From: Candidatus Nomurabacteria bacterium
Lineage (GTDB): Bacteria > Patescibacteriota > Minisyncoccia > Phycocordibacterales > UBA9973
Direction: 5' to 3'
Assembly (NCBI GenBank): GCA_020851595.1
Contig: JADZCK010000019.1
Span: forward strand, 1 to 56,714
DNA: 56,714 nt
The translations under genes were made by a program, and so were the position numbers. Shown piece by piece: positions 4,696-46,252 of the stretch (its first letter is position 1; every line of letters begins with the position of its first letter). The notes beneath the pieces were generated by a model. That model did not search any database. It was not told the origin of the DNA and was given only the letters and a program-made list of their open reading frames with translations.

Positions 4696-5790
4696 TTATA
4701 TACCTTCTTTTTTTAGTTCTTCTATAAGCTCGCGGGATTTGCGAGAAAGTTTATTTGGAAGTTTTATGTTTAGTTTAATCAAAAGATCACCACGTTTATT
4801 CTTAGAGGTTGGAACACCCTTGCCTCTTACACGAAGAACCTCATTAATAGAAACACCTTCTGGAATAGTAACTTCTATGTCTCCATCGAGTGTCTTTATC
4901 GGATATTTAGTTCCGAGGAGTGCGTCAGAAAGATTTAAATTCAAACTCATAACGAGATCGTTTCCCTCCCGCTTAAAAACTGGGTGTGGCGCTACGTTTA
5001 TTTTAATATAAAGGTCTCCAGTAGTACCTCTTGAGATAGCTTCTCCATATCCCGTCATACGAACCATCTCTCCATCGCGAATTCCTGCAGGGATATTAAT
5101 AGATATTTCTTCTTCACGACGAAGCACTCCTTTACCCTTACATTTATCACAAATTTCTTTGGGAACTTCGCCAGAACCTAAGCAAACTTCACAAATTTCT
5201 GTATTGGCAATAGTGCCAAATATTGTTCTTTTTTGTTCATGAACTTTACCTTGACCATTACAATGTTTACATGTTTCCATTTTAGATCCCGCTTTTGCGC
5301 CAGAACCATTGCAAGCCAAACAATTTGAAGTTTTAGTAATTAAAATTTTTCTATTTACACCAAAAATAGATTCAGAAAAAGAAATTTGTATTTCTGTAGA
5401 AATATCTCTACCTCTTCTAGCTTGAGCTCTGCCTCCTCCCATTCCTCCACCAAAAAAATCACTGAAGATATCATTTAAGTTGCCAAAATCAAAATCTGCT
5501 CCAGCGCCATTTTGGAAACCAGAGAAATCGAAACCACCAAAACCTCCTTGCTGCGCTCCTCCGTATCCGGCTCCCATATTTTCAAAACCAGATCCAAATT
5601 GATCGTATTTTGAACGTTTTGCATCATCAGAAAGCACTTGATAAGCCTCATTCACTTCTTTGAATTTTGCTTCGTCTCCACCTTTTTTGTCAGGGTGATA
5701 TTTGTGCGCCAATTTGTAAAAAGCCTTCTTGATTTCATCTTTAGAAGCGCTCTTAGGAACACCTAAAATTTCATAATAGTCTTGTTTCAT
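4696..5790 (-). CDS. dnaJ: molecular chaperone DnaJ
   Basis: J domain (DYYEILGV...HPDK), G/F-rich region, four CxxCxGxG zinc-finger repeats. Confidence 0.95.
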
Positions 5791-37362: not shown

Positions 37363-38880
37363 ATGGATAAAAATGATAAAAAATCAAATATAGAAGCGCG
37401 CCCACCTGTAGTAGTAGTGATGGGTCATATTGACCATGGCAAATCCACCCTACTCGACTACATAAGAAATACAAACATAGTAGCTAGCGAGACAGGTGGT
37501 ATCACTCAGACTATTTCTGCATATGAAGTTGTGCATAAAGACGAGAATGGCGAAGATAAAAAAATAACTTTCTTGGATACCCCAGGACATGAGGCTTTTT
37601 CCAAAATGCGTGAGCGTGGAGCAGAGATAGCGGACATAGCCATACTAGTAGTGTCAGCGGAAGATGGAGTAAAACCTCAGACGATAGAGGCTTGGAAAAC
37701 TATCGTTGAATCAGGGATACCTTCGATAGTAGCAATAAATAAAATAGATAAACCTGGAGCCAACATAGAAAAAACAAAAATGGAATTGGCTGAGCATGAA
37801 ATATATTTAGAAAATTATGGAGGCAAAATTCCTTGCGCAGAAATCTCTGCAAAAGTGGGCACTGGTGTAGACGGACTTCTTTCCCTTATCCTCATACTAG
37901 CTGAAATGGAAAACTTTACAGGGAATAGTGACGAAGAAGCATCTGGTTTTGTAATTGAAGTAAACTTGGATTCCAGGAGAGGCATACTTGCGACACTTAT
38001 CATCAAAAATGGTTCTATAAAAAAAGGAATGACCGTGGCGGTGGAAGATAGTATTTGTTCTACAAGAATAATAGAAAATTTCTTGGGCAAAAATATCGAC
38101 GAAGCTTCTTTTTCCTCCCCTATCCGTATTGTTGGTTTTGATAAAATGCCTAGAGTCGGCGCGCAATTTAAAACTTTCAAAAAGAAATCTGACGCTGAAC
38201 AATATGCAAAAGAATGGCAAGAAAATAAAAAAAAGGTAAATACAAATACTTCTAAAGAAAACCAAGATACAAACAAGAAAATAATTCCGATAGTATTAAA
38301 AGCTGATGTTTCTGGATCAATAGAAGCGATAGAAAAAGAAATAGCTAAAATCAAAAATGATAACGCTGTATTTAAAATAGTAGTTAAAGGTATAGGCTCT
38401 ATCACTGAATCTGATATAAAAGGAATATCTTCTGGAGAGGATGCTATCGTCGTAGGATTCAATGTAAAAGCAGACAAGAGCGCTATCGAGATAGCTGAAA
38501 AAAGAGGAATCATTATTTCCTTCTTTGAAATCATTTATAAAATGACAGAATGGCTAGAAACACAGATGGAAGAAAAGAGGCCGAAGATTGAAACCATAGA
38601 GACGACAGGTCAAGCAAAAATAATCCGTGCGTTTAGCCGTACAAAAGAACGACAAATAATAGGCGGCAAGGTTACAAGCGGACAAATAAATTTAAATAGT
38701 ACTGTCAGAATAATGCGTAGGGATTTCGAAATCGGCAGAGGCAAAATAGTTAATTTGGAAAAAAGTAAGGTTAAAACGAACGAGGTAATAGAAGGTAATG
38801 AATTTGGAATGATGATCGAATCAAAAATAGAAGTTGTAGCTGGAGATGTAATAGAAGCATTTTCTATAGTTCAAAAATAA
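37363..38880 (+). CDS. infB: translation initiation factor IF-2 (short form, no N-terminal extension)
   Basis: [33 protein letters not shown]. The C-terminal IF-2 domains are present. Confidence 0.93.
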
Positions 38881-38881
38881 T

Positions 38882-39202
38882 ATGCAAAGAAACGAAAAAG
38901 TCGCAAATAATATAAAAGAACTTTCTGCGCAATTCTTGGGGCGTGAAAATAACAGAACTTCACTTATCACGGTGACTTCTGCTACTGTATCCCCTGACCT
39001 AAAAAAAGCTACGATATTCATCACCGTGCTTCCAACAAGCAAAGAAAAAAACGCGCTAGACTTTGTAAAAAGACAACGCGGAGATTTGCGAGAGTTTTTA
39101 AAAAAGAGCATGCCAATAAAAGTAATACCTTTTATTGATGTTGAGATAGATGAAGGAGAAAAAAATAGACAGAAAATTGACGAATTGCTTCGAGCAAAGT
39201 AG
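38882..39202 (+). CDS. rbfA: ribosome-binding factor A
   Basis: 106 aa, with ITVTSATVSPDLKKATIFITVLP and infB-rbfA synteny. Confidence 0.82.
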   Translation: MQRNEKVANNIKELSAQFLGRENNRTSLITVTSATVSPDLKKATIFITVLPTSKEKNALDFVKRQRGDLREFLKKSMPIKVIPFIDVEIDEGEKNRQKIDELLRAK

Positions 39203-39203
39203 T

Positions 39204-39232
39204 ATTTAAAATAAGGCCTGGTAGCCAAGTGG
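39204..39232 (+). repeat. 29-bp direct repeat: ghost copy of the tRNA-Cys upstream flank plus its first 18 nt
   Basis: atttaaaataaggcctggtagccaagtgg is identical at 39204-39232 and 39307-39335. Confidence 0.9.
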
Positions 39233-39317
39233 CATGAGCGAAGCGAAATGAATTTAGCCAGAGCTCTGCCTAAAAGAAAGAAACCAAAGGCGATTGAGTT
39301 GTTTAAATTTAAAATAA

Positions 39318-39389
39318 GGCCTGGTAGCCAAGTGGTAAGGCAGAGATCTGCAAAATCTCTATGCGGCGGTTCAATTCCGCCCCAGGCCT
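39318..39389 (+). tRNA. tRNA-Cys: tRNA-Cys (GCA)
   Basis: Acceptor ggcctgg/ccaggcc, anticodon stem gagat/atctc with loop ctGCAaa, T arm ggcgg-ttcaatt-ccgcc. Confidence 0.88.
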
Positions 39390-39457
39390 CAAAAAATCAA
39401 CTTTGATTTTTTAAAAAATTAAATAATGTGCTAGAATGTTTTTGTTTTATGACGAGC

Positions 39458-39539
39458 GCCCGGATGGCGGAATTGGTATACGCGCACGACTTAAAATCGT
39501 GTCTCGCAAGGGATGTGGGTTCGACCCCCACTCCGGGCA
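39458..39539 (+). tRNA. tRNA-Leu: tRNA-Leu (TAA), type II
   Basis: Acceptor gcccgga/tccgggc, anticodon stem cacga/tcgtg with loop ctTAAaa, long variable arm, T arm gtggg-ttcgacc-cccac. Confidence 0.88.
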
Positions 39540-39559
39540 CACAACTTAATAAAAAATAT

Positions 39560-39582
39560 GCGCCCATAGCTGTTTTGGTAGA
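39560..39582 (+). repeat. degenerate ghost of the 5' part of tRNA-Lys
   Basis: gcgcccatagctgttttggtaga versus gcgtccatagctcagctggtaga (39635-39657), 18 of 23 identical. Confidence 0.6.
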
Positions 39583-39634
39583 TATACAGTTATAAAAAAT
39601 AATGTAAGATTATAGTTAAGTTTGGAAATTATAC

Positions 39635-39707
39635 GCGTCCATAGCTCAGCTGGTAGAGCAGATCCCTCTTAAGGATAAGGTCGGAGGTTCGATCCCTCCT
39701 GGACGCA
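39635..39707 (+). tRNA. tRNA-Lys: tRNA-Lys (CTT)
   Basis: Acceptor gcgtcca/tggacgc, D arm gctc-agctggta-gagc, anticodon loop ctCTTaa, T arm ggagg-ttcgatc-cctcc. Confidence 0.88.
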
Positions 39708-39742
39708 CAGCGATCAGGAAAAAACTGATCAAAATTATTTAC

Positions 39743-39824
39743 GGGCGAGTGGCGGAATTGGTATACGCGCTAGTCTTAGGAACTAGTGGAGCAATCCTTG
39801 AGGGTTCGAGTCCCTCCTCGCCCA
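39743..39824 (+). tRNA. tRNA-Leu: tRNA-Leu (TAG), type II
   Basis: Acceptor gggcgag/ctcgccc, anticodon stem ctagt/actag with loop ctTAGga, T arm gaggg-ttcgagt-ccctc. Confidence 0.88.
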
Positions 39825-39919
39825 CAAAAATGAGAAGCATTTTTATAGTGAATCGAAAGCCGGAGCACGACGGTGCGAGGCGGGATCGCGAACTTTGCTA
39901 ATAGGCAAAGATTTGTGAC

Positions 39920-39938
39920 CGAGTCCCTCCTCGCCCAC
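39920..39938 (+). repeat. 19-bp direct repeat of the tRNA-Leu(TAG) 3' end (T-loop to discriminator): att-like scar
   Basis: cgagtccctcctcgcccac is identical at 39807-39825 and 39920-39938. The 94 bp between the copies contains a GC-rich stretch (agccggagcacgacggtgcgaggcgggatcgcg). Confidence 0.85.
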
Positions 39939-39941
39939 CCC

Positions 39942-39970
39942 TTGACTTTTATGTTGATAAGTGCTATACT
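39942..39970 (+). promoter_or_regulatory. sigma70-type promoter TTGACT-17-TATACT, 8 nt upstream of the ATG (near-leaderless)
   Basis: ttgact at 39942-39947, tatact at 39965-39970, ATG at 39979. Confidence 0.6.
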
Positions 39971-39978
39971 ATCAGCAT

Positions 39979-40791
39979 ATGAGTAAAACAAATAAAAAAT
40001 CAATAAATTACGGCTTGAAAATATTGACTATATTGGCTTTCGCCTTTATTTTTATACCCTTCGATAAAGCTGCTGCTACATTTGGTTATGGTACAAACGT
40101 ACCTTACGTTACCACTGATCATGCTGGCTATAATAGCCTCGGACAACCAAGAGAAGTAAACAACCCAGTCCCTTCTGTAAGCTCAATATACCCAAAATCA
40201 ACAAACAGATATTCAGGCGGAAAAACTGTTACTATTACTGGAGGTAATTTTGTTCCGACTTCTATCGCAAGATTAAATGGTTCAGATAGACCTACTACAT
40301 TTATAGATTATTCTCACCTATTAGTTCAATTATCTGCAAATGATATTTCTCGTAGTGAAGGATTCTTTATCACTGTTTACAATGGAGCACCTGGAGGTGG
40401 ATATTCCAACTCAGCTTTCTTCACTATAAACAACGTAGCTAATACACCGGCTAACACAAACAATAATGGGTATAATAATGGTTACGATAATAGCTATAAT
40501 TACAACAATACAAACAGTAACGGCTACAATAATAGCTCTTACACAAACAGCAATTACACCGACAATAATTACACTTCAAATACTTCAAGCCAAAATAGCA
40601 CAAATAGTGGTACTTCAAACAAATACAGCACCCTAACTTCTAATGCTATCTGGGGATCAAACACTTTCCTTCCTTCTGGATTGGTACAATGGATCTTGCT
40701 TGCGATAATAATTCTCGTAATTGTTATATTAACTAGAAAAATATTCGGCGGAGAAAAAGAATATCACGAATCTCCAATGAAACACGCTTAA
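39979..40791 (+). CDS. cell-surface protein: signal/anchor, IPT/TIG-like Ig domain, N/Y/S/T-rich stalk, C-terminal TM anchor
   Basis: PSVSSIYPKS...GGKTVTITGGNFVPTSIARLNG...LLVQL resembles IPT/TIG. This is followed by about 70 aa of N/Y/S/T low complexity and LVQWILLAIIILVIVILT. Start set at the ATG at 39979 (the track uses a GTG at 39961). Confidence 0.55.
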   Translation: MSKTNKKSINYGLKILTILAFAFIFIPFDKAAATFGYGTNVPYVTTDHAGYNSLGQPREVNNPVPSVSSIYPKSTNRYSGGKTVTITGGNFVPTSIARLNGSDRPTTFIDYSHLLVQLSANDISRSEGFFITVYNGAPGGGYSNSAFFTINNVANTPANTNNNGYNNGYDNSYNYNNTNSNGYNNSSYTNSNYTDNNYTSNTSSQNSTNSGTSNKYSTLTSNAIWGSNTFLPSGLVQWILLAIIILVIVILTRKIFGGEKEYHESPMKHA

Positions 40792-40815
40792 TAATTCCTT
40801 TAAAATAAAGGGAAA

Positions 40816-40857
40816 ATACCAAAAAGTCAGGCCCCAAAAGGCTTGACTTTTTGGTAT
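40816..40857 (+). terminator. hairpin terminator after the surface-protein gene
   Basis: ataccaaaaagtcaggcc / ggcttgactttttggtat, an 18-bp stem with one mismatch. Confidence 0.65.
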
Positions 40858-40871
40858 TTATGTGATACAAT
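40843..40871 (+). promoter_or_regulatory. sigma70-type promoter TTGACT-17-TGaTACAAT overlapping the terminator's 3' arm and facing the GC-rich cassette
   Basis: ttgact at 40843-40848, tg at 40863-40864, tacaat at 40866-40871. It shares the 10-mer cttgactttt with the promoter at 39941-39950. Confidence 0.5.
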
Positions 40872-40911
40872 TAAACCAAGAATAAGGTACTTTGAAAACT
40901 ACATAAACACA

Positions 40912-40967
40912 GATGGTTTGCTCATTAAGTAGCTGATTTTTATCGGCTTTTCAATGAGCAAACCATC
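40912..40967 (+). promoter_or_regulatory. 15-bp perfect inverted repeat (stem-loop) in the cassette leader
   Basis: gatggtttgctcatt (40912-40926) pairs with aatgagcaaaccatc (40953-40967), with a 26-nt loop. Confidence 0.6.
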
Positions 40968-41047
40968 ATTAAAGTTTTAAGTCAACTTTCTTTAAGCTCG
41001 CGCTTCGGCGCTTAACAGCGCCATTGGCGCAAAAAAAAGGAGACGAA

Positions 41048-41941
41048 ATGAACATCGACTTGACAGTAATCGAAAAAAAGGAAGAGGACTCCTCGACCAC
41101 CATCACCGCTACCGCGGTGGTGACGCCCGACCCGCCTCCGCCTACCCCAAAAGGGCAGGCTCGGAGAGTCACCCCGTTGACCGTGAAGTTCACCATCAAC
41201 GGAGCTCCAAAAGGAGTCTCCCCAGTCGACGCAAACGGTCACGCCAGTATCGAGCTGAAAAAGCTCGAAGCCGGCAAGACCTACACGATCACCGCCGAGG
41301 TTCTCGGAGCATCCGTCCCAACCTCGGCGACAGAGGCGATAACCATCGCCGCCCCGCCCACGAAAACGAAGGTCCCAACCGGGCCCTTCGGATGGGCAAT
41401 GATGGTGCTGTTCTGGGTCATTGTCTGGGTCGTTGGACCCGGATGGCTCACGATGTTATACCTAGGAATAACGATTGGAATACTCTTCCTCATCGCGAAA
41501 CTCCGGGGTACGACATTGGGCTCGGTTGTTGGCAACAACAACTGGGTGTTCTTCTCGGTGCTGGCGATGGCGGCCATCTCGGCTGTCATCGGACACTTCA
41601 ACCCGCTTCCCGCTCAGGGAGCAGTGAGTTGGCTGAAAAGTCTTTTCACAAACGCTCCGAGCGGGATCCATGGACACATTTTTTGGAGATTCTTCAACAA
41701 TGTGTTCTTCGGAAAGACGTTTACCGGTGGGTGGAGCCATGCGGCTCTGCTCTACCTCGTGTCTGTAATTCCAGCGTTCTTCATTTCGTTCTCGGACGAG
41801 ATCGGAGATCTCTGGAAGAACTTCAAGGGGAAACATCAAGGCAAGGCAACGAGTTTCCTGACCTTGATCCCGGAGTTCGGTCGCTTCCTGTTGAAAGACG
41901 GGGTGGCTGAGATCTTCTGGGCGTTCCTAAAGAGAAAGTAA
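41048..41941 (+). CDS. hypothetical membrane protein: N-terminal Ig-like beta domain with Pro-rich segments plus about 5 TM helices
   Basis: AAGGAG at 41037-41042 lies 5 nt from the ATG at 41048 (the track starts at a TTG at 41024). Strong G/C third-position bias in this frame. TVKFTINGAPKG...GKTYTITAEV is followed by hydrophobic helices. Confidence 0.7.
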   Translation: MNIDLTVIEKKEEDSSTTITATAVVTPDPPPPTPKGQARRVTPLTVKFTINGAPKGVSPVDANGHASIELKKLEAGKTYTITAEVLGASVPTSATEAITIAAPPTKTKVPTGPFGWAMMVLFWVIVWVVGPGWLTMLYLGITIGILFLIAKLRGTTLGSVVGNNNWVFFSVLAMAAISAVIGHFNPLPAQGAVSWLKSLFTNAPSGIHGHIFWRFFNNVFFGKTFTGGWSHAALLYLVSVIPAFFISFSDEIGDLWKNFKGKHQGKATSFLTLIPEFGRFLLKDGVAEIFWAFLKRK

Positions 41942-41951
41942 GGAGAAAGCC

Positions 41952-42365
41952 ATGAGTAAGAGCAAGATCTTTTCCGTTATCATGGTTCTCCTCCTCGTCA
42001 TCTTAACCGCTGGGTGCGGCAAGTCTCCCAAAAAGGAACTTGCCGAACTTAAGGCAAAGACCTCGGCCACAACCTCGGATGAAGCTAAGGTTGCTCTCGA
42101 AGAGGTTCGCGAGTTCGTCGAACGGCTCAAGCAAGAAGAAGAGCCCCCAGACGAACTCAAAGGAGCCATCGTACTTCAGAGCCAGCGAGCTTTGGAGTAC
42201 GGAACGCTTCTCGTCAAGGAGAAGGTTTCGGGTGGGGTCGAAACCCTACTTGAGATCTTCAAGTCAAACGGGGTTGACCCATCAACGATAACCGACCCCG
42301 AGACAAAAGCGTACCTAAAAGCCTATGATCCCTACTCAGGGGACAGGCTTGAAGGTTACAAATAA
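41952..42365 (+). CDS. hypothetical lipoprotein (137 aa, helical, acidic)
   Basis: AAGGAG at 41940-41945. Signal peptide with lipobox LTAG/C (VLLLVILTAGCGKSP). Confidence 0.7.
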   Translation: MSKSKIFSVIMVLLLVILTAGCGKSPKKELAELKAKTSATTSDEAKVALEEVREFVERLKQEEEPPDELKGAIVLQSQRALEYGTLLVKEKVSGGVETLLEIFKSNGVDPSTITDPETKAYLKAYDPYSGDRLEGYK

Positions 42366-42428
42366 AACATAAGAGCGAGAGGGCTTTCGCAAGAAATCTT
42401 CTCGCTTGATTCAAAAAAGGAAACTACG

Positions 42429-43370
42429 ATGGAACTCGGAATTTGGGTGCTCGTCACCCTCGTGCTCTGGTTCACCCTCGACATCCCGCTGATCTATTGT
42501 TTGGCCATCGTGGCCATAGCGTGGATCATGATTAAGGGAGGTGGAATTGGCAACGCTTTCAACGGCATCAAAAACGCCGTCGGAGGAGTCGTTGATTTCA
42601 CCAAGCGCCTGATCATTTTCGTCCCGGTTTTCTTGGGGATGACTTTGATCATGACGTTGGCAAGTGGCATCTCCCCGCATAACGCAACCAGAAGGTTGCA
42701 AGTGTTGGGACCGATGCCATGGAACTGGCACTCCAATCCCGACATGCCCCTCGTCCTCTTCGTGTGCTTGATGTTCCTGGTTACCATGGCTTCCGTGAAG
42801 GTTGCATATGGTGACTGGAAGCTCGCACTCAAGATTTTCGGGGGGTCGGCTAGCATCTTGATCGTTATCCTATACCTTCCGAAGACTCGGGAAGCCATGG
42901 GGCCCACGACGCTCGCCGGACCAGACGGAGCTGACGAAAAGATCGCCAAGGAGGGCGTCGTCGCTCCGGTGGTTAAAGGAGCGGGAACGCTCCTCGCCGG
43001 ACAGCCCGACGACCTCAAAAAAAGGGGGTTGGTCGGTTCGTCCTATCATAGGGCGAAGGAGTACCTCTTCGGTGAAGAGCCTCCTCCCACCCCACCGCCG
43101 CCCGCCGCCCCACCGGTGGCGCCACCAACCCAAAAACAGGTGAGGAGGTTGTACCTCTTCACAGACAACGACACCATCGCGGTAAAAATCCACCTTGGAG
43201 AAGTGGACTTTTACCCCAAGGGTGGAGAGGTGTTGATCACCCCTCCGTCCCCCCTCAAGTCCTGGCTGGACAAGCCAGGGACGATAAATCCCCGGAGGGA
43301 ATTCCCTCCAGGAGTTTACACCGTAAAGAGGGTGGACCCCGGTGCCACTGGCATCGAGATCTGGAACTAG
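42429..43370 (+). CDS. hypothetical membrane protein: about 4-5 N-terminal TM helices, poly-Pro linker, 80-aa C-terminal beta domain
   Basis: AAGGA at 42417-42421. Linker EEPPPTPPPPAAPPVAPPTQ. GC3-rich frame. Confidence 0.7.
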   Translation: MELGIWVLVTLVLWFTLDIPLIYCLAIVAIAWIMIKGGGIGNAFNGIKNAVGGVVDFTKRLIIFVPVFLGMTLIMTLASGISPHNATRRLQVLGPMPWNWHSNPDMPLVLFVCLMFLVTMASVKVAYGDWKLALKIFGGSASILIVILYLPKTREAMGPTTLAGPDGADEKIAKEGVVAPVVKGAGTLLAGQPDDLKKRGLVGSSYHRAKEYLFGEEPPPTPPPPAAPPVAPPTQKQVRRLYLFTDNDTIAVKIHLGEVDFYPKGGEVLITPPSPLKSWLDKPGTINPRREFPPGVYTVKRVDPGATGIEIWN

Positions 43371-43432
43371 AGCAACTTGTTCTTCGGCCAGAAAGGAGTA
43401 TCGCGCCTGGCCAGCGCAAACATCAAACGCAA

Positions 43433-43464
43433 AGGGCGACTCGTTCACACGAGCCGCCCTTTTT
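43433..43464. terminator. GC-rich rho-independent terminator shared by the convergent cassette and pilin operon
   Basis: agggcgactcg (43433-43443) pairs with cgagccgccct (43450-43460), followed by tttt. Confidence 0.75.
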
Positions 43465-43483
43465 CAATTCTTTTTGTATTTTT

Positions 43484-43807
43484 CTACTTTGATAAATCTA
43501 CGCTACCATCTTGCAAGTTTATTTTAGACTTAGGAATATTTAGAGTACTTAGAACCATATTGAGTATAGTGAATACTCCCATCATTATCGTAAGCCCTAC
43601 AATACCCCAAATCATATGATCTCTACCGGTTATCTTGCTTTCTTCATTGTCTGCATTCGCAAAGAATTGATAGACCCCATAAAGGAAATAAACCAAAGCG
43701 AGAGCGAATAGCAATTCTATAAGTGGATTGATGATCTTATCACCAACATTAAAAATAAACGTATCCAGATCTGCTGCGTAGGCTATTTTTGTAGAAAAAA
43801 AATCCAT
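43484..43807 (-). CDS. TrbC/VirB2-like T4SS-type pilin paralog P1 (signal peptide apparently truncated)
   Basis: Two TM helices flank the NADNEESKITGRDHMIWGIVGL loop motif shared with P2-P4. Only 11 aa precede the AYA/A site. Confidence 0.55.
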   Translation of the reverse strand: MDFFSTKIAYAADLDTFIFNVGDKIINPLIELLFALALVYFLYGVYQFFANADNEESKITGRDHMIWGIVGLTIMMGVFTILNMVLSTLNIPKSKINLQDGSVDLSK

Positions 43808-43809
43808 TT

Positions 43810-44202
43810 TTATTGCGGAGGAATTTCAACAGTAGGGAAATCTGTCGTGGTAGCAGGAGTGTCTAAATTAAATGTTTTCAATACAACATTTACAAGCCCC
43901 CACATACCGATAATAACAGCTAAACCCACAATACCGTAGATCATTCTATCTCGGCCTTTTGACTTTGCTTCCTCGTCATCAGCGATTACAAAAGATACTA
44001 CCCCCCAAACAAAGAAAATAACTCCTAGCAATATTAATACAGGGATAACACTTTGTAGAAACTTACCAACAACACACAAGAAACCAAAAATCGTACCATT
44101 TGTACCAGTACTACATTCAGAAGTTACAGTAGACTGTGCTAATGCTACAAATGGAGCAAAGGTTAATACAGCACCTGACAAAACCATTAAATTCTTTTTC
44201 AT
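43810..44202 (-). CDS. TrbC/VirB2-like T4SS-type pilin paralog P2
   Basis: Signal peptide, Cys-x12-Cys loop, TM1, loop DDEEAKSKGRDRMIYGIVGL, TM2 (GMWGLVN). Confidence 0.6.
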   Translation of the reverse strand: MKKNLMVLSGAVLTFAPFVALAQSTVTSECSTGTNGTIFGFLCVVGKFLQSVIPVLILLGVIFFVWGVVSFVIADDEEAKSKGRDRMIYGIVGLAVIIGMWGLVNVVLKTFNLDTPATTTDFPTVEIPPQ

Positions 44203-44269
44203 TTTTTATTTAAACTAAAAAACGTTAATAATAAATCGCGACCTAATAATAAACTAATAATGTAACTTA

Positions 44270-44298
44270 ATTATACCTCCTAGCAAATTTCTAAGCAA
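44270..44298 (-). promoter_or_regulatory. internal promoter TTGCTT-17-TATAAT upstream of P2-P1
   Basis: The minus strand reads ttgctt agaaatttgctaggagg tataat (plus-strand aagcaa 44293-44298, attata 44270-44275). Confidence 0.5.
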
Positions 44299-44310
44299 AT
44301 CAAAATTTAT

Positions 44311-45000
44311 CTATGGGGCTTTCTTCGGAACCGTCGGGAGAAAATCAGTCGGTACTCCAAAGGTAGCACCAAGAATATTAACCAATCCCCACACAGAAAG
44401 CATTACAGCCAAAGACACAATACCCCAAATCATAAACTGTTTACCTTGTGTTCTTTTGGATTCATCATCAGCATTGATTATAAAGAAATTTACAGCTCCC
44501 CAGATAAACATAAGAGTAGCTAAAGCGAAAATCAAAGGAATAATAGTACCGTTGATGGTGCAAGTAATATAAGCTATGTATTTTTGGAAGGTTGACTCTT
44601 CCGCTCCTGGTGTAGGAGCTACACAAGAACCTTCGGTTACTATTGTGTTTAATTTAGGAGCTGTTAAATCACTAGAGTTAAAAAAGGTGCTTACAACTAT
44701 ATTCACAAGCCCCCACATACCGATAATAATAGCTAGGCCCACAATGCCGTATATTATCCTATCTCTTCCTTTATCCTTTGCTTCTTCGCTGTCATATATG
44801 ACGTACTGCACTACCCCCCAAACAAAATACAGGACCCCTAGAGAAATAAGTAACGGCAGAATAGAACTAAAGACATTATTTATGTTACAAACAAAACCAC
44901 TGAGTCCCTCATCTGGACAAGCAGCTGTAGCGGCAGAGGCTGTAAACGGCGAGAATCCTACTAAAAATAATATTGGAATAAACTTAAATATTTTTTTCAT
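44311..45000 (-). CDS. tandem double-domain T4SS-type pilin paralog P3
   Basis: There are two complete Cys-loop/TM/charged-loop/TM modules (DSEEAKDKGRDRIIYGIVGL and NADDESKRTQGKQFMIWGIVSL). Start set at the ATG at 45000 (MKKIFKF), 1 nt after the P4 stop. Confidence 0.6.
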   Translation of the reverse strand: MKKIFKFIPILFLVGFSPFTASAATAACPDEGLSGFVCNINNVFSSILPLLISLGVLYFVWGVVQYVIYDSEEAKDKGRDRIIYGIVGLAIIIGMWGLVNIVVSTFFNSSDLTAPKLNTIVTEGSCVAPTPGAEESTFQKYIAYITCTINGTIIPLIFALATLMFIWGAVNFFIINADDESKRTQGKQFMIWGIVSLAVMLSVWGLVNILGATFGVPTDFLPTVPKKAP

Positions 45001-45001
45001 A

Positions 45002-45406
45002 TTATGAAGGTAATAAATTTTTAATATCTGTACTAGATGGAGCTTTGTTTTGATTATCGTCATTCAAACCAAAAGTATTTTGTACTATGCGCACAAGTCC
45101 CCACATAGCTACGATAACAGTAAGCCCGATAATACCATATATTATACTATCCCTACCTTTTACTTTTGCCTCCTCGGTATCAGCGATAACATACTGAACT
45201 ACTCCCCAAACAAAGTAAATGACACCAAGTAGAATAATTATAGGAAGAACGTAATTCATAAGCTGTCCTATTCGGCAAAGAATACTTTGCAAACCGGAAA
45301 CAGCGCATGGATCTATAATAACCACAGCATAAGCCCTCGTACCAAATAAAAAAGAGAATAAAACTAATAAACTAATTTTATAAAACAATTTGAATATATT
45401 TTTCAT
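45002..45406 (-). CDS. TrbC/VirB2-like T4SS-type pilin paralog P4
   Basis: Signal peptide, CAVSGLQSILC loop, DTEEAKVKGRDSIIYGIIGL, AMWGLV. Confidence 0.6.
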   Translation of the reverse strand: MKNIFKLFYKISLLVLFSFLFGTRAYAVVIIDPCAVSGLQSILCRIGQLMNYVLPIIILLGVIYFVWGVVQYVIADTEEAKVKGRDSIIYGIIGLTVIVAMWGLVRIVQNTFGLNDDNQNKAPSSTDIKNLLPS

Positions 45407-45429
45407 ATTTTTTAAAAAAATAATTTTAA

Positions 45430-45810
45430 TTAACCAAGACTAGTAATAGTAGCCGATATCATCTCGGCTATAGCCCACGATCCTAATAAAATTGCAGAAC
45501 CTATCAAGGTATAAAGAAGTGCGTCTTTTGCTTTCCCTATCTCTTCAGGATTGCCTCTAGCAAAAACAAAAAGAAAACCGCAGTAAATAACAGCCAGAAC
45601 GATGAGAGGTATGCCGATTTTTATAACCCCCTCAAGCATGTTTTGTATGAACTCAGGAAGCGTGGTCTCTGTACCTAGTGGGTTACAAATTTTCCCTTTA
45701 CATGGATCTACAACCGTCCCTCCAGTGTCTGCAAGTAAAACGAAAACAGGAAGAAAAAAATAAGATAAACTTATAAATAATACGTACCATTTTTCTTTCA
45801 TTAATTTCAT
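45430..45810 (-). CDS. divergent T4SS-type pilin paralog P5
   Basis: Same topology: signal peptide, CKGKIC, TM1, charged loop GNPEEIGKAKD, TM2. Start set at the ATG at 45810 (MKLMKEKW). Confidence 0.5.
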   Translation of the reverse strand: MKLMKEKWYVLFISLSYFFLPVFVLLADTGGTVVDPCKGKICNPLGTETTLPEFIQNMLEGVIKIGIPLIVLAVIYCGFLFVFARGNPEEIGKAKDALLYTLIGSAILLGSWAIAEMISATITSLG

Positions 45811-45829
45811 AGAATGATTATAACTTATA

Positions 45830-46252
45830 TTACAAACCAATCCAAGCTCCGTCATACCCTAAAATTGATAATAATGTTTTAACGATGAGATAACCCGCAA
45901 CAGCAATAATCAGACCAATGACAACACTACTAAAAGTATCCTTTGCTTTTGTTTTAGCCTCCGCCCCAGGAGCAGTCACTATTAAAAACCCAGTATATGT
46001 AAACAAGATAGCGGCAATTGGAATCACCATCTTAAAAAGAAGAAATTTTATTACAGTATCTACTAAAGTCATAAGAGCGGTAAAATCACACTCCCCAGCA
46101 GGAGTGACAGTACCATCAGCAGCCGTTTTCATATTATTACAAGGAATCAGGCTGGTCGCGCCATGCGCAGCATAAAAAGAAGGAATAAACAACATAAAAA
46201 AAATAAAAACAGCGGGCAAGCTTTTGATTATAAAATTTTTTATTTTTTGCAT
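45830..46252 (-). CDS. divergent T4SS-type pilin paralog P6
   Basis: Signal peptide, Cys...Cys segment, TM1, loop APGAEAKTKAKD, TM2. Confidence 0.5.
   Translation of the reverse strand: MQKIKNFIIKSLPAVFIFFMLFIPSFYAAHGATSLIPCNNMKTAADGTVTPAGECDFTALMTLVDTVIKFLLFKMVIPIAAILFTYTGFLIVTAPGAEAKTKAKDTFSSVVIGLIIAVAGYLIVKTLLSILGYDGAWIGL

Follow-up and report, generated by a model that had tools for sequence, protein, structure and literature searches.

A GC-rich envelope cassette beside a VirB2-like pilin array of Candidatus Nomurabacteria, probably a foreign allele of a conserved slot

The DNA analyzed here is a stretch of 56,714 nucleotides (the window) of Candidatus Nomurabacteria contig JADZCK010000019.1; it is core chromosome and carries IF-2, RbfA, GyrA, ribosomal protein S1 and a tRNA array. 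Between positions 40995 and 43466 lies a compact, GC-rich cassette of three genes, which we call P1, P2 and P3, flanked on the left by a gene for an IPT/TIG surface protein and on the right by a convergent array of VirB2-like pilin genes (Table 1). In a survey of about ten related loci from Parcubacteria or Nomurabacteria-like genomes, the slot between these flanks is in every case filled by either of two envelope modules, termed type A and type B. The cassette is probably a compositionally foreign allele of this slot, which would make the slot a replacement-type hypervariable envelope locus, with alleles recombined among Parcubacteria of differing GC content. Related loci are designated below by L numbers and related proteins by four-digit P numbers.

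Composition and products of the cassette

The cassette segment has a GC fraction of 0.547, compared with 0.348 for the remainder of the window, and the change is abrupt at both edges, at ~40995-41050 on the left and ~43450 on the right. An initial annotation of this DNA, which proposed a foreign three-gene envelope cassette, had counted GC by hand in seven short intervals, and all seven counts were exact when repeated. The three intact plus-strand open reading frames (ORFs) that it listed are likewise present, the third, P3, encoding 313 residues. The GC fraction at third codon positions (GC3) is 0.70 in P1, 0.59 in P2 and 0.71 in P3, as against 0.26 ± 0.035, with a maximum of 0.335, in 49 native genes of the window. 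The shift to C-ending codons claimed earlier is borne out by these values and by the codon shares of cassette and native genes, which are 0.89 vs 0.21 for TTC, 0.69 vs 0.16 for ATC and 0.42 vs 0.07 for CTC. A comparison of tetranucleotide usage, one of the checks proposed in the annotation, also marks the segment as strongly deviant, with an L1 distance of 0.739 against 0.193 ± 0.021 for 83 other 2.4-kb windows (z = 25.7). The composition of the cassette is foreign at the codon level, and in GC, codon usage and oligonucleotide signature the segment deviates in the manner of a genomic island. Each gene is preceded by a Shine-Dalgarno (SD) site, AAGGAGA for P1 and P2 and AAAGGAAAC for P3. Such signals had been described as lacking from native genes, and we found AGGA, GGAG or GAGG at -16..-4 in none of the 49.

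Both junctions of the segment are reproduced base for base in independently assembled contigs. The 1,346-bp contig L001 (ERR12389192) is 100% identical to window positions 40857-42202 and spans the left junction; the 6.4-kb contig L002 (DRR274959) is 98.5% identical over positions 49413-43086 and spans the right one. In L003 (SRR29456499), a pilin gene and terminator 100% identical to those of the window are followed by another GC-elevated cassette, and L008 spans the left junction with a variant allele. Comparable junctions occur in a 190-kb contig of a Nomurabacteria metagenome-assembled genome (L009) and in two JGI contigs (L014 and L015). These contigs bear out the earlier preference for real integration over misassembly, and the boundaries proposed for the segment coincide with conserved elements at its left and right edges.

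All three products are predicted to be membrane or envelope proteins, as the annotation had held, from transmembrane (TM) helices in P1 and P3 and a lipobox in P2. The earlier description of P1 stands for its Pro-rich part and its membrane helices, of which hydropathy gives four clear ones in place of about five; there is no signal peptide. The Ig-like domain of that description is seen only as matches below the Pfam cut-offs (Big_3_5, 22.8 vs 35.5 bits; Big_1, 17.4 vs 34.9 bits). Similar sub-threshold Ig matches are shown by P1 homologues, and the Ig-like region is absent from the homologues of L014 and P0009. Homologues of P1 number three among 5.8e9 proteins. In P0007 of locus L008, P1 is fused to P2, and in an ENA contig a P1 homologue is followed by two small genes; the contig of P0009 (L016) gave no usable gene context.

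P2 fits its initial assignment as a lipobox lipoprotein. It carries the canonical motif VILTAG-C at residues 16-22, in agreement with the pattern [LVI][ASTVI][GAS]C, and the lipobox cysteine is kept in all four full-length homologues, among them those of L014 and L015 and the P0007 fusion. The architecture of P3 is common to the long-form relatives P0002, P0037, P0061, P0063, P0071, P0094, P0096 and P0116, of which P0096 was the only addition from a word-index protein search with the long-form profile. An AlphaFold2 model of full-length P3 has a predicted local distance difference test score (pLDDT) of 59 and a predicted template-modelling score (pTM) of 0.27, the membrane domain being of low confidence. 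That the products match no known family also holds: families for P1, P2 and P3 are described in none of Pfam, PHROGs, NCBIfam, PADLOC and the PDB sequences. Searches of PDB sequences with profiles of P3 and of its C-terminal domain gave nothing below E = 0.3, and looking up P3 and the IPT protein by exact sequence returned no record.

The all-beta domain at the end of P3 (the C-domain) is new. It closes with ATGIEIWN at the extreme C-terminus, followed by the stop codon, and a domain of ~78 residues of this kind (FYPKGG…AWGVEIWN) ends the last gene of both type A and type B modules, where it sits on a Pro/Thr-rich linker. A profile search yielded 126 matches in 1.84e9 representative proteins, nearly always at the extreme C-terminus. 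Most carriers are small, anchored in the membrane and end in AWGVEIWN or AWGVEIWQ; about a dozen are P3-like long forms. For the genome scan, an alignment of 10 sequences was used, one of 58 sequences being too diverse. The AlphaFold2 model of the domain (pLDDT 92.6) is an all-beta fold of seven strands, for which Foldseek returned weak cupin- or jelly-roll-like matches, the best being the luminal domain of GGCX (TMq 0.71, E = 1e-2). Neither Pfam nor NCBIfam has a model covering the domain, and no Pfam family was found among 58 members. An identity with NfeD was considered and rejected: the seven-strand cupin-like sandwich has no OB-fold, and PF01957 matches one of the 58 members, at a non-significant E = 0.06. 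Positive-inside reasoning, together with an apparent signal peptide read by eye in a paralogue from L011, suggests that the C-domain may be extracytoplasmic.

The domain also occurs in Acidobacteriota, where it ends a 465-aa protein with an apparent signal peptide (L011, 4828-6225; L012, ~4712-4843). The gene adjoins one for a 1,098-aa outer-membrane-protein-like product, BamA-like by appearance. Its GC is 0.44-0.47, below the 0.55-0.60 of the surrounding genome, which suggests that the C-domain family is foreign in Acidobacteriota too.

One slot, two modules and a shared frame

The order of IPT gene, cassette and convergent pilin array recurs in L006, L009, L014 and, with one extra gene, L010, in which a TerC-like membrane gene stands between the IPT gene and the cassette. 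Three other loci show the pilin-array side of the slot (L004, L005 and L015) and one the IPT side (L008). The IPT/TIG gene immediately precedes the cassette in L006, L008, L009 and L014, and the pilin array is syntenic in L002, L004-L006, L009, L010, L014 and L015. The longest contig, L009, carries in order IF-2, RbfA, tRNA-Cys/Leu/Lys/Leu, the IPT/TIG gene and a two-gene GC-rich block (0.54-0.58 vs ~0.40); convergent to this block are the pilin array and then genes for a solute-binding protein (SBP) and a methyltransferase. Position and flanks are thus fixed across strains and species, as in replacement islands. The slot was filled in every related locus found (L003-L006, L009, L010, L014 and L015). 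The recent insertion into an empty site envisaged in the initial annotation is not borne out, since the slot always holds either the triad or an SPFH-containing alternative with the same terminal domain.

The module of the window is of type B, comprising the polytopic P1, the lipoprotein P2 and the polytopic P3. A check for co-occurrence of the triad elsewhere, suggested by the annotation, found it again at the slot in L014 and in L008+L002. L014 has a P1-like protein without the Ig region, a P2-like lipoprotein and a 318-aa P3-like protein, at a GC of 0.53-0.60 vs 0.33. The contigs L008 and L002, both from one run, share a 22-nt overlap, and we read them as one locus, in which P1 and P2 form a fusion gene. 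Genes resembling P2 and P3 are found next to the pilin array in L015 as well, and in L007 they adjoin a short ORF fragment on the reverse strand. Type A modules, found in L003-L006, L009 and L010, consist of an SPFH/Band-7 gene translationally coupled to a gene for a small membrane protein (140-209 aa), whose start it overlaps by 4-17 nt. The SPFH/Band-7 match is above the Pfam cut-off in L003, L004, L005, L006 and L010, and the SPFH-like protein of L009 is homologous to that of L003 (E = 3e-11). A reading of P2 as the detached coiled-coil tail of SPFH proteins was rejected, with an hhalign probability of 0.06%. The annotation had named, as grounds for abandoning foreign origin, close relatives with the triad at native composition; the triad is indeed found in relatives at this site, but it is GC-rich there too. 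A type A sister module has native-like composition in L006. Locus L010 (CAYREQ010000008.1) is labelled "uncultured Candidatus Saccharibacteria", yet it is gene-for-gene syntenic with the Nomurabacteria-type loci save for the TerC-like gene, and the taxonomic label may be imprecise.

Wherever the edges could be read, both cassette types lie within the same frame of promoter, leader, 3' hairpin and terminator. The IPT gene ends in a terminator hairpin whose descending arm contains the promoter, and this TTGACTTTTT…TGATACAAT arrangement is also found in L005, L006, L008, L009, L010 and L014. A conserved YTTTGAAAA stretch occurs on the 5' side of the cassettes. The AT-rich leader hairpin, an element whose sequence varies between loci, has relatives in L014 and L009; in the latter (~4790-4860), the hairpin contains a GC-rich palindromic loop insertion of ~60 nt (CCTCTCCGGCCTTCGGCC…CTGGCCAGGAGAGGGCCAGGGTGAGG), which resembles a small inserted repeat element.

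The GC-rich leader element, which occurs once in the window, precedes the first gene in both module types (window, L005, L006, L008, L009, L010 and L014), the SD of the first gene in the window being GGAG at 41039-41042. Folded sequence by sequence, the element is stable (nested hairpin, -18 to -30 kcal/mol), and it may adopt either one nested hairpin or two hairpins. RNAalifold places 11 pairs, five of them with compensatory changes, such as GCGCC/GGCGC vs GCGTC/GACGC, with a slightly unfavorable covariation energy term (+0.63 kcal/mol). On the 3' side, a hairpin is present in both types (window, L003, L004, L005, L006, L009, L010, L014 and L015). Because MAFFT aligned the 5' and 3' intergenic regions poorly, sequences were folded one by one, and for the 3' hairpin a trimmed alignment was also used; there, 35 of 35 cells pair, three of the five pairs show compensatory changes, and the covariation score was reached by none of 500 shuffles. 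The loop reads CUGGCCA or CUUGGCC, and the upstream GGCCAG (43386-43391) is complementary to it, which makes a pseudoknot or an alternative hairpin possible from base complementarity. In several loci, AAGGAGG lies between GGCCAG and the hairpin. A terminator hairpin, strongly predicted by RNAfold in all ten loci folded and 100% identical in L002 and L003, lies between the cassette and the convergent pilin array; given the convergent gene layout, it is presumably used bidirectionally. An Rfam scan of 38800-44000 returned the four tRNAs and chance matches only, with no match to the leader and 3' elements.

The initial annotation had taken the cassette to sit under a native-looking promoter and had counted the first SD among the signs of foreignness. 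Both belong to the frame conserved in the related loci read there. The promoter and first SD are resident and not imported, because the frame elements coincide with the segment boundaries and recur in relatives.

Table 1. Features of the slot and its flanks in the window
Feature	Position	Strand	Description	Basis
IPT/TIG "choice-of-anchor Z" surface protein gene	39961..40791	+	C-terminal membrane anchor; left flank	Native GC
IPT-gene terminator hairpin	40814-40859	+	Inverted repeat I5	95% complementary
Cassette promoter	40843-40871	+	TTGACT-17-TACAAT, TG-extended	Promoter scan, 10/12 matches
AT-rich leader hairpin	40912..40967	+	In ~170-nt 5' untranslated region (UTR); inverted repeat I1, 26-nt arms	85% complementary
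GC-rich leader stem-loop	40998..41030	+	Left edge of GC-rich segment	Directly upstream of SD
P1	41048..41941	+	297 aa; Ig-like region ~15-100, Pro-rich spacer, membrane domain	ORF, Pfam, hydropathy
P2	41952..42365	+	137 aa; lipobox lipoprotein, mature part mostly charged, probably helical	Sequence read directly
P3, N-terminal part	42429..43139	+	~5 TM helices, QVLGPMPWNW motif, soluble spacer, Pro-rich linker	Hydropathy
P3, C-domain	43140..43370	+	Residues 238-313, all-beta	Profile search, AlphaFold2
3' UTR hairpin	43386..43417	+	Stem 43403-43406/43414-43417, 7-nt loop CTGGCCA	Conserved in 9 loci
Terminator hairpin	43431..43464	.	T-run on cassette strand; right edge of segment	RNAfold
Six VirB2-like pilin genes	43484..46252	-	Right flank, native GC	Pfam PF18895/PF04956 matches

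The likely true start of the IPT/TIG gene is the ATG at 39979. Its product matches NCBIfam NF058597 (E = 3e-22), and the L009 orthologue matches Pfam TIG (E = 7e-8). The gene's own promoter (39942-39970, TTGACT-17-TAtACT) is a near-twin of the cassette promoter; both are TG-extended and they are the two best promoter-like sites of the region. Because the ATG lies only ~8 nt past the -10 box, the IPT mRNA may be leaderless. At the C-terminus (window 40740-40791), a TM helix is followed by a conserved tail, (F/L)GG(E/A)x(E/S/R)YH(E/N)(S/T)P(M/L)KHA, common to the window, L005, L006, L009, L010 and L014; this tail might serve as a signal for sorting or interaction. The central part of the protein, rich in Asn, Ser and Thr, is of low complexity and varies in length, being 9 nt shorter in L008. 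In the pilin array, the gene at 44311-45063 carries two tandem pilin domains. No VirB4, VirB6 or relaxase genes were seen in the scanned part of the window.

Allele replacement and competing explanations

Evidence for replacement comes from near-identical flanks that enclose divergent content, the pattern of replacement islands, both in window vs L003 and in window vs L008+L002. Between the window and L003, the pilin is 100% identical and the C-domain 64%. The corresponding values are 63% and 37% for L014, and 62% and 69% for L009; by the last figure, the C-domain of the window's type B P3 is closest to type A C-domains. L008 is 99-100% identical to the window up to 40985 and 100% over 41088-41187, after which identity falls to ~50%. 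In the joined locus L008+L002, identity stays at ~50% through the P1-P2 fusion and a different P3 membrane domain and becomes near-complete from 43086, over the linker and C-domain. Divergent alleles in one host background are therefore intragenic mosaics. The cassette genes are under purifying but relaxed selection: the ratio of nonsynonymous to synonymous substitution rates (dN/dS) is 0.27-0.46 for the cassette genes, 0.34 for P1, and 0.06-0.11 for the neighboring pilin gene.

GC3 values of the last gene in the cassette grade continuously, from 0.38 in L006 through 0.42 in L010, 0.44 in L003 and 0.61-0.65 in L004, L005 and L014 to 0.71 in the window and 0.73 in L009. Host pilin GC3 in the compared loci is 0.28-0.39, the L006 host having 0.38, the same as its cassette. 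In L015, pilin GC3 is 0.41-0.60, and P2- and P3-like genes at the same position beside the pilin array have 0.64-0.69. The single distant high-GC donor of the initial annotation is not supported, in view of this continuum (0.38-0.73), the mosaic alleles and the P2- and P3-like genes of L015, which are of nearly native composition.

We propose that Parcubacteria lineages differing in GC take up one another's DNA and exchange alleles by homologous recombination, with the conserved flanks and frame supplying the homology. The source of the window allele would then be a higher-GC relative, as opposed to a mobile element or a distant phylum, and on the simplest account the slot would be ancestral to the group. 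In groundwater Patescibacteria, most detectable gene transfer is among Patescibacteria, and competence and recombination genes are kept (PMC12455944).

A role for the products can be put forward only tentatively. The natural P1-P2 fusion lends support to the idea that P1, P2 and P3 form one membrane complex, which could expose the beta-sandwich domain at the cell surface, held on a stalk rich in Pro. In type A alleles, the SPFH scaffold would replace P1 and P2. Features that may bear on surface exposure are the predicted TM helices, the lipobox, the Pro-rich linkers and the apparent signal peptide of the L011 paralogue; the Ig-like region of P1 may be cytoplasmic. Such a complex could be a variable cell-surface or host-contact determinant working beside the VirB2-like pilus, under diversifying pressure from, for example, host-cell specificity or recognition by phages or competitors. 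The whole of this functional proposal, from one complex through surface display to a variable contact or recognition role, is possible but should be regarded as less than probable.

Several points weigh against allele replacement between relatives, or against the role attached to it. L004 and L005 have cassettes that co-diverged with their hosts (dS 0.33 vs 0.40), and GC3 is still 0.61-0.65, so high GC can persist without recent import. A donor allele close to the window cassette was not found in a high-GC background, L015 being only ~30% identical in P3. Most loci are short metagenomic contigs of unclear strain structure. On the functional side, we infer the role from architecture and position alone, and the outside location of the C-domain from positive-inside reasoning and the L011 paralogue. 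The Ig-like region of P1, without a signal peptide and with four TM helices, would be cytoplasmic, and the convergent orientation of cassette and pilin genes is no evidence of co-regulation.

A stronger version of the functional proposal holds that the slot is a dedicated switch of host or partner specificity in episymbiotic Parcubacteria, the fixed promoter and structured RNA frame expressing any module that occupies the slot, and the module showing its beta domain together with the VirB2-like pilus. We consider this unlikely. If it were true, swapping or shuffling of modules through recombination with other lineages, GC-richer ones among them, would alter which cells can be attached to or which phages attack, and the RNA elements on the 5' and 3' sides would form a novel pair of cis-regulatory elements.

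The elevated GC might also have arisen in place, in a vertically inherited locus, either through selection acting on sequence or because a recombination hotspot drives GC-biased gene conversion. Consistent with this, GC at the slot is elevated in many hosts and with both module types, recombination is frequent, and L004 and L005 retained their GC3 through co-divergence with the host at a dS of ~0.33. However, GC3 in the slot of L006 is native (0.38 vs 0.38), cassette and host identities are discordant, and P2- and P3-like genes occupy the same position in a GC-richer relative (L015). The GC3 shift of +0.45 is, to our knowledge, far above any reported for bacterial gene conversion. We regard a local rise as improbable.

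Decidedly improbable, too, is a one-off recent acquisition from a distant, much higher-GC donor outside the Candidate Phyla Radiation (CPR), possibly a host cell, into an empty site. The difference in GC3 (0.59-0.71 vs 0.26), the separate SD sites of the internal genes and the members of the C-domain family in Acidobacteriota genomes (L011 and L012) would suit such an event, but homologous modules occupy the slot in every relative found and share the frame, and alleles within one species are mosaics. Moreover, all inspectable contexts of P1 and of P3 long forms adjoin Parcubacteria-type pilin arrays, and the Acidobacteriota gene differs in architecture and has a GC below that of its own genome.

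Exchange at specific sites would require the GC-rich palindromic edge elements to act as targets of an unlinked recombinase, as in integrons or shufflons. The elements, GCGCC-N3-GGCGC on the 5' side and GCGC-CTGGCCA-GCGC on the 3' side, do bound the variable DNA in both types, with a fixed upstream promoter driving whichever cassette is present. Against this, no contig has a recombinase in or next to the locus, the breakpoints between alleles lie within coding sequence (~41190 and 43086) and not at the elements, and the 5' element is not a repeat of the 3' one; homologous recombination of the ordinary kind, through identical flanks, is enough. The window and the longer loci lack, within the locus and beside it, the recombinase gene that an integron would have, although the attC consensus was not formally searched. 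We regard this kind of exchange as very improbable.

The tRNA array left of the IPT gene bears two scars. At 39204-39335, 29 nt of the 5' part of tRNA-Cys and its upstream bases are duplicated exactly, 103 nt apart, and at 39807-39938 the 3' end of tRNA-Leu(TAG) is duplicated exactly over 19 nt, 113 nt downstream. The Cys-Leu-Lys-Leu array is shared with L009 and L014; in L009, the gap from tRNA-Leu to the IPT gene is only ~37 nt, without duplication, which points to an old att-type footprint specific to the lineage of the window. Duplications of a tRNA 3' or 5' end are typical of att-site scars, and the two seen here are what an entry of a mobile element, prophage or defense island at the array, with the cassette as its remnant, would have to build on. 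Such a remnant is hardly credible: the tRNA-Leu duplication lies 1 kb upstream of the segment, a native-GC gene, IPT, separates the tRNAs from the cassette, and L009 and L014 have the same tRNA array and gene order without the scar. As stated in the initial annotation, no integrase, transposase or relaxase ORF lies within 40995-43466, and a repeat scan found no direct repeats bounding the segment. There was no PADLOC match at E ≤ 0.1 for P1-P3 or the type A proteins and no significant PHROGs match for the cassette proteins. A C-domain scan of IMG/VR viral contigs found none, nor did tblastn of P3 against phage and plasmid records, where P1 was not searched.

Lastly, an assembly chimera, with GC-rich DNA of another organism fused into an AT-rich contig, can safely be dismissed: the abrupt switch in composition and the metagenomic source would fit it, but both junctions recur in contigs of ERR12389192, DRR274959 and SRR29456499, and equivalent ones in the 190-kb contig and the JGI contigs.

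Relation to known systems

CPR (Patescibacteria) live attached to other cells, and the determinants of their partner range and surface variability are largely unknown. The locus is a compact, repeatedly exchanged envelope module next to a VirB2-like pilin array; it defines three protein families and one well-folding domain undescribed in Pfam, NCBIfam and the PDB, and to these come two conserved RNA-like elements that Rfam does not contain. As the locus shows, allele replacement at a fixed slot, between relatives that differ in GC, can be enough to produce a sharp GC island in a CPR genome, with no need for a mobile element or distant donor, which is relevant to how GC islands are scored in surveys of horizontal transfer in streamlined genomes.

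The slot is not an integron cassette, a prophage, a defense system or a chimera. Conjugative systems carry entry- or surface-exclusion determinants, such as the lipoproteins TrbK and TraT and the protein TraS. The cassette resembles these in having a small lipoprotein and inner-membrane proteins by pilin genes, polymorphic between similar backbones. Unlike them, it shows no similarity in sequence or fold, the sole match being to the signal peptide only of TrsH (E = 0.07), and it has no adjacent conjugative machinery.

Arrays of VirB2-like genes are common across Patescibacteria, and in one cultured epibiont such an array is reported to be essential (PMC12102498). The right flank agrees with these arrays: six PF18895/PF04956 genes on the chromosome, with no relaxase nearby in the window. 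The cassette proteins, in contrast, are not pilins and match no component profile of type IV secretion systems. The main text of that study contains neither "SPFH" nor "Band" and so mentions no SPFH module at the array end (PMC12102498).

SPFH (stomatin/flotillin/HflKC) and NfeD genes form operon pairs, in which the SPFH gene is accompanied by an "operon partner protein" (PMC2636767, PMC4208085). Type A alleles are similar in coupling an SPFH gene to a small membrane protein with a C-terminal beta domain. They differ in that domain, a seven-strand cupin- or jelly-roll-like sandwich here as against the five-strand OB-fold of NfeD, and in the position of the partner gene, which lies downstream of the SPFH gene. 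The window allele has no SPFH gene at all, with no Band_7 match in P1-P3.

The closest parallel is with replacement-type flexible islands and hypervariable surface loci, exemplified by O-antigen and capsule loci and by the hypervariable regions of Pelagibacter, Prochlorococcus and Alteromonas. The slot shares with them a fixed site, near-identical flanks around divergent gene sets, atypical composition, the absence of mobility genes, cell-envelope products and, probably, exchange by homologous recombination in the flanks. It differs in being tiny (2.4 kb, two or three genes), in encoding membrane proteins and not enzymes of glycan synthesis, in having a GC above that of the genome and not below it, in its common terminal domain and RNA-like frame, and in its occurrence in CPR bacteria, next to an array of VirB2-like pilin genes. 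As a phenomenon, replacement-type hypervariable envelope loci are known, and the form found here is an unusual one, tiny, protein-based, high in GC, RNA-framed and built from undescribed families.

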